From positions 96,001 through 160,000 of the forward strand of contig JBDHZC010000005.1 of NCBI GenBank assembly GCA_039811685.1: a stretch of DNA of 64,000 nucleotides, in the 5' to 3' direction. Shown here one piece after another: positions 2,859 through 32,803 of the stretch (position 1 is its first letter; each line of letters starts with the position of its first letter). Made by a program: the position numbers and the translations under genes. This DNA comes from Armatimonadota bacterium (GTDB lineage: Bacteria; Armatimonadota; UBA5829; DSUL01). Below the pieces are notes generated by a model that was not told the DNA's origin, ran no database searches, and was given only the letters and a program-made list of their open reading frames with translations.

Positions 2859-3003
2859 GGGAATCTTCCTCTTTCGTTTGCAGTAGCTTTGTCTATCTTA
2901 GGACCCGGCTACTGGAAAAAACAGAGCGCGCAGATTCCCCGCATTGGTACGGGTCTTTGCCTGTAGGGGGCAAAAAATCGGGCTTTTTGGGGCACTGGCA
3001 GGC

Positions 3004-3038
3004 AAAAAAATAGCCCGCGGAAGTAGCTTCAGCGGGCT
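3004..3038 (-). terminator. Intrinsic terminator
   Basis: AGCCCGC-T-GAAG-CTA-CTTC-C-GCGGGCT followed by ATTTTTTT on the minus strand. Confidence 0.8.
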
Positions 3039-3085
3039 CCAGAGAAAATATCTGACAGAAGGAGAAAAAGATATTTGGTTTCCAT
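3004..3085 (-). ncRNA. Candidate sigma-54-dependent small RNA (~82 nt)
   Basis: Bounded by a sigma-54 promoter and an intrinsic terminator; 8-bp stem with loop UUUUCUCCUUCUGUC. Confidence 0.65.
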
Positions 3086-3095
3086 CATTAATAAG

Positions 3096-3111
3096 TGCAA
3101 GAACCGTGCCA
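3096..3111 (-). promoter_or_regulatory. Sigma-54 (RpoN) -24/-12 promoter
   Basis: TGGCAC-GGTTC-TTGCA, exact match to TGGCAC-N5-TTGC(A/T). Confidence 0.8.
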
Positions 3112-3270
3112 AAAGCCAGATAGCGCTGAATTTTGTCCAGATTTTGCGTCAACAGGAGATGGGCAGTCTCTCCTGTGTCTCCTCTGCTGATGCCTGGAGC
3201 AGTGCTCCGGAGTGCGTCTGCGTCTGATATTCTGCTTGCGGATGACTGTCTCTGAAAGGATGCTGGGCCA

Positions 3271-4020
3271 TTGGGTCTTACAGCCGCTTTAGTCTGCAAA
3301 AATGAAGAGAAGAACATGGAGCGCGTCCTGCGCAGCGTGCAGTTTGCAGATCAAATCCTGGTTGTGGACTCCGGCTCGACGGACAAGACTCTGGAGATCG
3401 CGCGCAGGTTCACCGGGGACGTTATTGTGCGCGACTGGCCTGGCTTCTCGGCGCAGAAGAACTTCGCGTTGTCACAGGCCTCCGAGGAGTGGGTTTTATG
3501 CATGGACGCAGACGAGGAAGTCTCACCCGAGCTTGCCCTGGAGATTCAGGAGGTTGTAGCGGGCAGGCGTACCGGTTTTCGCTTCTACAACATGCCGCGC
3601 CTTACCCGTTTTGTGGACAGATGGATGCGCCACGGAGGATGGTATCCCGATCGGCAACTGCGCCTGCTTCAAAACGGAGCGGGGGAGTACAATGACCATC
3701 CGGTGCATGCGGCTATCACGCCAGACGAGCCCGTAGGCAAGCTGCAGGGAGACATCCTGCACTACAGCTTCGAATCCATTTCCGACTATGTGGACAGGAT
3801 GAATGGATACTCCTCCACTATGGCGCGAATGCTGCTGGAACGCACGCACCCTCCGCGCGTTGGACCGTTTGGTCTCGGACTGACGCTCGCGCGGAAATTT
3901 CTGGAAGTTTATCTCCTTAAGCGCGGCTTTTTGGACGGGGGCGACGGGTTTGTGGTGGCCTGCCTGGGAGCCTACAGCGTCTTTCTGCGGCAGGCGAAAG
4001 TCTGGCGGCCTGAAAAGTAA
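3271..4020 (+). CDS. Glycosyltransferase family 2 (WaaE/KdtX-like)
   Basis: KNEE, VVDSGSTDKT, GFSAQKNFA, MDADE, GGWYPD, GFLDG motifs. Confidence 0.88.
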   Translation: MGLTAALVCKNEEKNMERVLRSVQFADQILVVDSGSTDKTLEIARRFTGDVIVRDWPGFSAQKNFALSQASEEWVLCMDADEEVSPELALEIQEVVAGRRTGFRFYNMPRLTRFVDRWMRHGGWYPDRQLRLLQNGAGEYNDHPVHAAITPDEPVGKLQGDILHYSFESISDYVDRMNGYSSTMARMLLERTHPPRVGPFGLGLTLARKFLEVYLLKRGFLDGGDGFVVACLGAYSVFLRQAKVWRPEK

Positions 4021-32151: not shown

Positions 32152-32167
32152 TGGCACGATAATTGCA
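32152..32167 (+). promoter_or_regulatory. Sigma-54 (RpoN) -24/-12 promoter
   Basis: TGGCAC-GATAA-TTGCA, 27 nt before the ATG at 32195. Confidence 0.85.
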
Positions 32168-32194: not shown

Positions 32195-32803
32195 ATGAGG
32201 TTTTTTTGGGCGTTGGCGCTGTGTGCTGCGGCGATGTGTTCGCAGAGCGCCCGAATAGATGCGGCTGCGATCATTCTGAATTTCGACGACCTGAGCGTTG
32301 GAGAGCCCGTGCCTGACGGCTACATGGGAATCACGTTCGATCTCGGGCAGATGGGCTTTGAGGGTCGCACAGGCCGAGCGATAGTGGCGGATGAGTCCAC
32401 TGGCGCCAGGCCCGGCACACCGCCAAACTGCATAATCAACGAGTGGGGAGTCAGACAGCTCGACTTCACCGCCTCATCCGGACGGTTCAACTTCTATGGA
32501 GCAGTTGTGGCGAGCTATGGCAAAGTAGCCAGCCTGCAGGCGCCAATGATAGGCTTTGTCGGGTTCAGAGACGGCAAAACTGAGTACCTGAGTCCCGGCT
32601 TCATCATCACGGACAAGCCCGGAATCGCCAGCGTCAGCTTTTTGGATGTGGATATGGTGGAGATTGTCGCCGCCAATGGAGCCACCGGCGACTGCGGGTG
32701 GTACAGTCTGGACCACCTGATGTACGAACCCGTTCCGGAACCCTCGTCTCTGATGGTTCTGGGTGCGCCGCTGATGATCTTGCTTGTGCGCAAGCGAACC
32801 TGA
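32195..32803 (+). CDS. PEP-CTERM sorting-domain protein (202 aa)
   Basis: AGGAG RBS; signal peptide; LNFDDL; ends VPEPSSLMVLGAPLMILLVRKRT. Confidence 0.88.
   Translation: MRFFWALALCAAAMCSQSARIDAAAIILNFDDLSVGEPVPDGYMGITFDLGQMGFEGRTGRAIVADESTGARPGTPPNCIINEWGVRQLDFTASSGRFNFYGAVVASYGKVASLQAPMIGFVGFRDGKTEYLSPGFIITDKPGIASVSFLDVDMVEIVAANGATGDCGWYSLDHLMYEPVPEPSSLMVLGAPLMILLVRKRT

Follow-up and report, generated by a model that had tools for sequence, protein, structure and literature searches.

Sigma-54-dependent small RNAs in Armatimonadota: a very probable new family with a predicted link to PEP-CTERM messenger RNAs

The locus and its anatomy

The stretch of DNA considered in this work, called here the window, comprises 64,000 nucleotides (nt) of the genome of an Armatimonadota bacterium (assembly GCA_039811685.1, contig JBDHZC010000005.1, positions 96,001 to 160,000). 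Near its beginning, two plus-strand glycosyltransferase genes, GT4 (1556-2665) and GT2 (3271-4020), are separated by a gap of 600 bp, and the minus strand of this gap carries the element that concerns us: a putative small RNA (sRNA) gene, originally predicted from the letters of the window as an unannotated, sigma-54-driven, base-pairing sRNA with an anti-Shine-Dalgarno seed. That prediction is supported by the rpoN gene, the activator, the Hfq gene and the conservation described below, and the coordinates that it gave for the promoter, the stem, the CU-rich stretch, the terminator and an 18-codon frame were all correct. We conclude that the locus represents, very probably, a real, conserved and previously undescribed sRNA family whose kind is known, namely that of the sigma-54-dependent sibling base-pairing sRNAs. 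That the locus itself is a real sigma-54-dependent sRNA gene is a claim that we hold with considerable confidence.

Reading along the minus strand, the first element is a sigma-54 promoter (3111-3096), TGGCACGGTTCTTGCA, which is indeed an exact match to the consensus TGGCAC-N5-TTGCA, with its -24 GG and -12 GC elements. The pattern TGGCACNNNNNTTGCW is found twice in the window, where 0.18 matches are expected from 100 shuffles, and a slightly stricter form of the promoter, TGGCACGNNNNTTGCW, occurs 10 times in the genome as against 1 for the reversed control. Sigma-54 transcripts usually begin some 12 nt past the C of the GC at -12. By this rule +1 was placed at 3085, and the promoter geometry, taken together with the position of the terminator, predicts a transcript of ~82 nt that would run from 3085 to 3004. 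An ATG lies at 3085 itself, 10 nt past the promoter, and opens an 18-codon frame, METKYLFLLLSDIFSGAR, whose stop falls inside the terminator stem.

The 5′ part of the predicted RNA is a module delimited by the alignment of its copies (3083-3053), consisting of GGAAACC, an AU-rich spacer and the seed core CTTTTTCTCCTTCTGTCA, a pyrimidine run of 18 nt (3070-3053). On its 3′ side, the minimum-energy fold of an 87-nt stretch, whose z-score is -2.81 against 200 shuffles, shows a small hairpin, UCAGA / UCUGG (3055-3039). The intrinsic terminator follows (3038-3004), an 11-bp interrupted GC-rich hairpin (AGCCCGC-T-GAAG-CTA-CTTC-C-GCGGGCT, 3038-3012) with an A and 7 U behind it (A and 7 T at 3011-3004 in the DNA). 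It had been proposed, 7 U included, and RNAfold returns its hairpin in every fold; a simple terminator scan of the window did not list it because of its internal mismatch.

A conserved gene family

The genome of the window (3.42 Mb in 15 contigs, 97% complete), designated G000, was compared with five other genomes of its family, which belong to two further genera (G001 to G005), and then with wider sets. The 18-nt core is present, exact, in four places of G000, on contigs C1, C2 and C3 and, in the window copy, on C5. Each copy lies at an equal distance behind a sigma-54 promoter, which in one of them has the variant GTGCA at -12, and each carries G(G/A)(A/G)AACC and an AU-rich spacer before the core, as well as a small hairpin and a terminator after it. 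The sequences of the terminator stems are unrelated among the four. All five other genomes of the family hold 2-3 copies each, built alike, with at most two mismatches in the core. One of them (L036), in another genus, is the positional ortholog of the window copy: the adjoining GT2 protein is 55% identical and is followed by a LolA-like gene. Between these two copies the promoter and the 5′ module are kept, while the sequence after the core differs and yet still forms a hairpin and a terminator.

Beyond the family, we used a sequence-only model (R1) made from the 35-nt 5′ module (alignment A2), promoter and terminator being left out, which has matches in 32 of the 53 genomes of the class and none in the six class genomes that lack rpoN. 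Among the 24 loci fetched from other families, 21 present TGGCAC-N5-TTGCA at a fixed distance upstream and hairpins and a U tract downstream; the remaining three comprise one with the core but without a consensus promoter and two apparent chance hits. Outside the class, 137 genomes of the phylum gave two weak R1 matches (E = 0.0015 and 0.0092), which are treated as unverified, the strict core being absent from both. A pattern scan over 185,579 species genomes returned 13 stretches, nine of them true copies, all in Armatimonadota metagenome bins; the other four, in other phyla, are without the GGAAACC module or terminator and were rejected as chance hits.

An automated terminator call is passed by 26 of the 33 candidates with both promoter and core, for which the median RNA length is 79 nt. 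Inspection by eye showed that six of the seven misses have a GC hairpin with an interrupted U run, and the seventh is a chance hit outside the phylum.

In other families the copies often form tandem arrays of 2-3. These arrays (L101-L120, for instance L102:1470-1960, L112, L108 and L118) include long and short forms of the sRNA. The long form, of ~110 nt, has a second conserved module, TAAAGTGTTGTGGC, and an extra hairpin, and in a very short form, of ~60 nt, the terminator comes directly after the core. One long-form copy (L110 in G050, ~1512, plus strand) has the conserved core and no recognizable sigma-54 promoter.

The description of the sRNA as unannotated agrees with Rfam 15: searches of the window region, at E up to 10, and of six related loci, at E up to 0.1 for Qrr, brought no family to its threshold. 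Membership in ar14 (RF02344; 17.5 bits against a gathering threshold of 58.8), in suhB/mmgR (RF00519; 14.6-26.9 bits, with 14.6 in the window region, against 41) and in His_leader (RF00514; 18.3 bits against 49) was rejected. In the weak alignments to ar14, suhB, His_leader and Thr_leader, it is terminators and pyrimidine runs that match. As judged from comparative sequence evidence, the locus is a member of a conserved gene family and not a chance pattern.

Structure and the conserved part of the RNA

It had been proposed that the CU-rich stretch, 15 nt long (3068-3054), is presented as the loop of an 8-bp stem formed by AAATATCT (3076-3069) and AGATATTT (3053-3046). This stem can form, and it is part of the minimum-energy fold computed from +1 (-21.6 kcal/mol), but it is better seen as an alternative fold: the 87-nt fold favors the small UCAGA/UCUGG hairpin over it, and it is missing from the three paralogs as well as from the syntenic ortholog L036. 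At the place of the small hairpin most sister copies carry GUCA-N7-UGAC, and a comparable hairpin is predicted in the other f1-type copies. All 17 family members that were folded end in a GC-rich hairpin and a U tract, with unrelated stem sequences. When 14 full-length copies were aligned with MAFFT and submitted to RNAalifold, only 3 consensus pairs were obtained, because the terminators vary in length and sequence; the structure was judged from per-sequence folds in place of a consensus alignment.

The mean unpaired probability of the seed is 0.83 in the window copy and ranges from 0.40 to 0.83 over the 17 folded copies. Given that the proposed stem is absent from the other copies and from the ortholog, the seed is regarded as a single-stranded 5′ region and not as a conserved loop, and the conserved, mostly unpaired element is, from the alignments and predicted folds, the 5′ module 3083-3053. 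The promoter, the seed and the terminator are kept throughout the four paralogs of the genome, the five other genomes of the family and the class; the stem is not.

Across the class, the invariant part reads (A)ACATCTTTTTCTCCTTCC, and in the family of the window genome A(T/C)ATCTTTTTCTCCTTCTGTCA. Taken as its complement, the core gives GGAAGGAGAAAAAGATG, in which a Shine-Dalgarno sequence is followed by an A-rich spacer and then by a start codon; a G-U pair still allows the UAU in the core of the window copy to pair with AUG.

The sigma-54 machinery, Hfq and translation signals

The genome contains rpoN, as the prediction of a sigma-54 promoter demanded (126.7 bits, in an open frame of 521 aa), together with an Hfq gene (96.8 bits) and a 16S rRNA whose 3′ tail is canonical (...CACCTCCTTTCT). 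It encodes a single true enhancer-binding protein, with 235 bits, the next five AAA+ matches reaching at most 33 bits. This protein, of 399 aa (C1:498022-499221; L057:1057-2256, plus strand), comprises the Pfam domains REC, Sigma54_activat and AAA_lid and is devoid of HTH_8, that is, of a Fis-type helix-turn-helix. Directly upstream of its gene lies that of an AtoS/ZraS-like histidine kinase (L057:2-889, plus strand).

The activator aligns only to the first ~375-386 positions of the NtrC, AtoC and PrsR profiles, which are 445-469 residues long, and stays below all cut-offs. Its assignment as PrsR (TIGR02915) was rejected: 386.9 bits against a cut-off of 502.6, with an alignment that ends at position 374 of 445 and no HTH_8. 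Open frames of ~400-420 aa holding the activator domain recur across the class, which indicates that the short activator is not an assembly artefact. Genomes of other families mostly carry an additional activator, which is longer, and an additional rpoN.

A promoter of its own, a predicted size between 50 and 300 nt, an intrinsic terminator with a U tail and a conserved unpaired seed fit an Hfq-type base-pairing sRNA; an hfq gene is present in the genome, and the RNA would probably make use of Hfq.

Predicted targets

In G000, and outside the sRNA genes, the core finds its longest exact complements (12-15 nt) at genes for secreted proteins 200-300 aa long, where they fall at the ribosome-binding site. 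A C-terminal end made up of VPEP..., a hydrophobic helix and then a basic tail identifies the products as PEP-CTERM proteins. Such proteins and the exosortases that accompany them are common in bacteria of sediment, soil, biofilms and activated sludge, and are little understood. In G000 the C-terminal PEP motif, the hydrophobic helix and the basic tail are found together with exosortases (3 matches, 190-196 bits); TIGR02595 has 39 matches, and a regular expression for the C-terminus gave 55 raw hits, of which 2 were discarded and 53 kept, one more gene surfacing later. Among the 70 sites of exact complementarity, 17 were chosen by eye for a start codon and a long open reading frame (ORF) close by, a biased choice in which 12 of the 17 are PEP-CTERM genes.

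A ranking free of such choice was obtained from 3056 crude gene calls, for each of which the duplex energy of the seed was computed over the region from -30 to +12. The mean is -16.2 kcal/mol for PEP-CTERM genes and -11.0 kcal/mol for the rest (Mann-Whitney p = 3e-12). The excess persists when the energies of 30 control seeds, in which CUCCUU was left in place and the flanks were shuffled, are subtracted (p = 2.4e-10), and also among the 1363 genes with a strong Shine-Dalgarno sequence taken alone (p = 1.3e-9). PEP-CTERM genes, which make up 1.7% of the calls (53/3056), account for 5 of the 10, 10 of the 30 and 20 of the 100 best duplexes, the very best of which (-31.4 kcal/mol) extends from the Shine-Dalgarno sequence to the AUG.

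Moreover, a consensus around GGAG, GAAGGAGAAA, is shared by the PEP-CTERM genes, 0.84 of which have A at -2 and 0.90 at -1, whereas in 1017 other genes with GGAG the flanking positions are nearly random. The sequences upstream of this motif are unrelated among the top targets, so that the shared motif is not due to recent duplication. Complementarity beyond chance is thus found in G000 and, as far as site patterns indicate, is partly reproduced in relatives. The phosphomannomutase gene of the window, whose ribosome-binding site had been noted as complementary to the loop, does carry AAGGAGAA at its start, but it ranks 524 of 3056 (-14.6 kcal/mol) and was rejected as a target.

On contig C7 of G000 (~78.8-84 kb, minus strand) stand six to seven tandem PEP-CTERM paralogs with the tail IPEPAFFQMGALIGMSGLGLL(R/K)LRKRS, all of which pair poorly with the seed.

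The sigma-54 regulon

PEP-CTERM genes are also found behind sigma-54 promoters. The 12 strict TGGCAC-N5-TTGCA sites of G000 are distributed among three sRNA copies (3 sites), six PEP-CTERM genes (7 sites), one receiver-domain protein and one apparently intragenic position, and the fourth sRNA and a seventh PEP-CTERM gene each have a variant promoter. The 8 strict sites of G001 (control 0) belong to 2 sRNAs, 3 PEP-CTERM genes, again that receiver protein and 1 other, and the 15 of G004 (control 2) to 3 sRNAs, 6 PEP-CTERM genes, once more the receiver protein and 4 others. The sigma-54 regulon of this Armatimonadota class appears, then, to consist almost entirely of PEP-CTERM genes and a multicopy sRNA. 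Furthermore, the five genomes of the class that have no PEP-CTERM matches also have no rpoN, no enhancer-binding protein and no sRNA.

The second sigma-54 promoter of the window (32152-32167, plus strand) belongs to this set: it lies 28 nt upstream of a PEP-CTERM gene of 202 aa (32195-32803, plus strand), whose C-terminal VPEPSS...RKRT was not seen by the regular expression. On contig C9 of G000, two tandem promoters (4674 and 4838, plus strand) precede one PEP-CTERM gene, as they also do at L179 (G001) and L190 (G004); the spacing of these tandem promoters is 133-164 nt, and the arrangement is kept in three genera. At C3:83135 (plus strand; L004), no more than ~90 nt separate a sigma-54 promoter from a GC-rich inverted repeat with a T run, and a PEP-CTERM gene begins further on, at 83271; the repeat could be a terminator or attenuator in the 5′ untranslated region, or a further small RNA. 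The receiver-domain protein, of ~330-370 aa (C1:547704, plus strand; orthologs at L177 in G001 and L188 in G004), is encoded by the only non-PEP-CTERM gene, besides the sRNAs, with a conserved sigma-54 promoter.

The PEP-CTERM genes that bear such promoters do not seem to be those that the seed would bind. In G000, a sigma-54 promoter is absent from all 21 PEP-CTERM genes down to rank 134, and the six ranked genes that do have one pair poorly with the seed (ranks 234-1279). In relatives, none of the nine motif-bearing PEP-CTERM genes has a sigma-54 promoter within 600 nt, and the duplex energies of nine sigma-54-driven PEP-CTERM genes range from -8.2 to -21.3 kcal/mol, with a median of -13.5. 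Two non-overlapping sets of PEP-CTERM genes are suggested by these sequence data, and the evidence for them is suggestive, not strong.

How specific is the target set?

We lean towards PEP-CTERM mRNAs as the main targets of the sRNA, though only slightly, and several observations weigh against this reading. The gene calls and the choice of start codons are crude, with at least two PEP-CTERM genes given a wrong start and one overlooked altogether. PEP-CTERM genes in general have stronger Shine-Dalgarno sequences (-9.8 against -7.7 kcal/mol with the 16S tail) and bind the control seeds better as well (-12.2 against -10.1 kcal/mol), and part of their enrichment is therefore generic. Non-PEP-CTERM genes form 80 of the 100 top duplexes of G000. 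In G001 to G005, the pattern GAAGGAGAAA-N0-10-ATG occurs at 28 distinct sites, of which 5 are at PEP-CTERM genes, 6 are antisense to sRNAs, 2 run past the edge of the locus and 15 are at other genes; in genus g2 just one such site is a PEP-CTERM gene. Over the class, 6 of 16 ORF-linked GGAGAAAAAGATGV sites are at PEP-CTERM genes, most of the others having signal-peptide-like starts, and in G013 a good seed match is present in only 2-3 of the 6 PEP-CTERM genes.

The separation of the two PEP-CTERM sets is in turn weak, the hypergeometric chance of no overlap being ~0.04 for six ranked promoter-bearing genes among 53, and one sigma-54-driven PEP-CTERM gene of G004 pairs well with the seed (-21.3 kcal/mol). 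The co-occurrence has one clear exception, G039 (97% complete), which has 13 PEP-CTERM matches and is without rpoN, activator or sRNA match. Finally, contigs from RNA libraries (four metatranscriptome runs) cover 2426-2864 and 3177-3418 of the window and not 2884-3147, an absence that is uninformative either way, because depth is low and small RNAs are lost in such libraries. Among these contigs, those of three libraries (X1, X5 and X7), of low depth and with no strand assigned, cover 2649-2864: they take in the end of the GT4 gene as well as a 57-aa ORF on the minus strand (2685-2858), and stop near 2859-2864.

Several of these points are what would be expected of a generalist sigma-54 sRNA, one that damps many mRNAs with strong, A-rich ribosome-binding sites, chiefly those of secreted and envelope proteins, and for which PEP-CTERM mRNAs are merely the strongest ligands. 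Such a broader, secreted-protein target set is a serious rival, if an unlikely one. It accommodates the better binding of PEP-CTERM genes to the 16S tail and to shuffled seeds and the many non-PEP-CTERM genes among the top duplexes, as well as the fact that the motif genes of relatives often have signal-peptide-like starts or encode prepilin-like proteins or a conserved 439-aa protein. What it does not account for is that the enrichment survives both the subtraction of shuffled seeds and the restriction to strong Shine-Dalgarno genes, that GAAGGAGAAA is common to PEP-CTERM genes while the GGAG flanks of the others are near random, and that the sigma-54 regulon is otherwise almost entirely composed of PEP-CTERM genes in three genera.

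That the RNA does not pair with mRNAs at all, serving instead as a decoy for an RNA-binding protein or as a sponge for another RNA, seems to us quite improbable. Nothing speaks for it directly, although a second conserved module, UAAAGUGUUGUGGC, is found in the longer copies of other families; against it, conservation is highest in an unpaired run of ~17 nt, exactly antisense to a Shine-Dalgarno sequence, spacer and AUG, and the complementarity of this run is enriched at one gene family. When the features of CsrA sponges are taken as the basis for comparison, the RNA differs from them in having only one GGA motif.

Still less credence is due to the view that nothing on the minus strand is functional, whether by chance juxtaposition of signals or because the conserved element is the ribosome-binding site and start of a small plus-strand ORF. 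The class-wide core does read, on the plus strand, as a perfect ribosome-binding site followed by ATG. Nevertheless, the triplet is ATA in the window copy and in the C1 copy, and the frames in relatives, of 7-49 codons, are mutually unrelated; as for chance, promoter, spacing and terminator recur in dozens of copies with unrelated terminator sequences, and the presence of the sRNA tracks that of rpoN.

Least credible of all is the alternative considered in the original prediction, in which a leaderless mRNA would encode the 18-aa peptide and attenuate the downstream 57-aa ORF (2858-2685). In its favor are the coincidence of the predicted +1 with an ATG, the stop in the terminator stem and the RNA contigs of three runs over 2649-2864, which include that ORF. 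Against it, neither start codon nor frame is conserved among copies: GTG, GCG or GAC stands at the position of the ATG; the AU-rich spacer differs by indels of 1-3 nt, which place the invariant core in different frames; and the frame, read by hand, has 11 codons in the C1 copy and more than 40 in the C2 copy, whereas the C3 copy lacks a start codon. The downstream genes differ between copies, which may stand in tandem arrays, and the 57-aa ORF matches nothing in Pfam or NCBIfam and has no tblastn homolog at the syntenic locus L036 or elsewhere (best E = 0.73).

A proposed mechanism

As a whole, the explanation that we favor, with only modest confidence, is that of a trans-acting sigma-54 sRNA family that blocks the translation of PEP-CTERM mRNAs. 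It is built on four kinds of direct observation, namely the anatomy of the sequence, its conservation, its co-occurrence with the sigma-54 machinery and the enrichment of complementarity, and from these we infer transcription, its 5′ end, the use of Hfq, repression and the switch outlined below.

FlgR- and CtcC-type activators provide a precedent for action from solution, and FlgR, the activator of the flagellar cascade of Campylobacter jejuni, works without DNA binding. By analogy, the kinase would phosphorylate the activator that has no DNA-binding domain, and the latter might open every sigma-54 promoter from solution. Sigma-54 RNA polymerase would then transcribe the ~80-nt sRNA from the promoter at 3111-3096, ending at the terminator 3038-3004, and this transcription would depend on the only enhancer-binding protein of the genome. 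At the same time, sigma-54 promoters would express one set of PEP-CTERM genes together with the sibling sRNAs. The unpaired, CU-rich core would pair, probably with the help of Hfq, with GAAGGAGAAAAAG and the start codon of other PEP-CTERM mRNAs, and pairing over the region from the Shine-Dalgarno sequence to the AUG would block the initiation of translation. A single signal could in this way induce one set of surface proteins and, by way of the sRNAs, silence another.

It is this last step, in which the sRNA family would be the post-transcriptional half of a surface-coat switch and its seed the mirror of GAAGGAGAAAAAG and the AUG kept by the larger PEP-CTERM set, that we put forward most tentatively, as a possibility more doubtful than the pairing itself. 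If it were true, exosortase-sorted surface proteins would be exchanged in one step, the ribosome-binding site of a gene family would have co-evolved with a dedicated sRNA, and no regulatory RNA would have been described earlier for either the PEP-CTERM/exosortase system or Armatimonadota. A search of open-access papers and of bioRxiv found no report of sRNAs in Armatimonadetes/Armatimonadota and no paper tying exosortase systems to sRNAs.

In any case, the work adds for Armatimonadota an sRNA family unmatched by Rfam 15, and it offers a concrete and testable mechanism for the silencing of the remaining PEP-CTERM genes. The short invariant seed and a circuit with one activator would make heterologous tests straightforward.

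Comparison with known systems

The closest parallel is with Qrr1-5 of Vibrio (RF00378). According to the available accounts of that system, the two have in common sibling copies that each possess their own sigma-54 promoter, one NtrC-type response regulator, a conserved unpaired seed with variable hairpins and an intrinsic terminator in an RNA of ~80-110 nt, the presence of Hfq and an action at ribosome-binding sites, which here is predicted. On the same accounts, they differ in that LuxO has a DNA-binding domain whereas the Armatimonadota activator has none, and in that Qrr RNAs address a few master regulators whereas the targets predicted here are dozens of paralogous surface-protein genes. 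In addition, the phylum is another one, no sequence or Rfam match connects the families, and the Armatimonadota seed mimics a whole ribosome-binding site.

MicA and RybB are sigma-E-dependent sRNAs of the envelope stress response that repress many outer-membrane protein mRNAs. An alternative sigma factor, short sRNAs and a 5′ seed that silences one class of exported proteins are traits that they would share with the family described here, in which the silencing is a prediction; the sigma factor and the targets are different, and there is no homology. The alpha-proteobacterial ar14 (RF02344) and suhB/mmgR (RF00519) have a similar layout of CU-rich motif and terminator, and the locus is a member of neither.

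A sigma-54-dependent sRNA inside the regulon of a surface structure has also been described in C. jejuni, where it is an RpoN-dependent sRNA of the flagellar cascade (PMC11187230). From what that source reports, it is unrelated in sequence, present in a single copy and different in its target logic.

As regards the protein side of the regulon, sigma-54 motifs were found upstream of 99 of 167 proteobacterial PEP-CTERM genes, and the available text of that study presents the motif for Proteobacteria only, describes no RNA regulator and leaves open the control of such genes elsewhere (Haft et al., 2006; PMC1569441). RpoN-dependent PEP-CTERM genes are, moreover, reported to be needed for floc formation in a few Proteobacteria (PMC9850573). 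The PrsK/PrsR/PrsT system, as presented in the same text of Haft et al. (PMC1569441), resembles ours in its sigma-54 promoters before single-gene PEP-CTERM operons and in a two-component system with an NtrC-type activator. It differs in that the activator found here falls below the TIGR02915 cut-off and is without a Fis-type domain and in that the kinase is AtoS/ZraS-like and not PrsK, while the sRNA arm would be, relative to that description, new. Set beside these systems, the present finding extends to Armatimonadota a link between sigma-54 and PEP-CTERM genes that was known, in that account, from Proteobacteria (PMC1569441).

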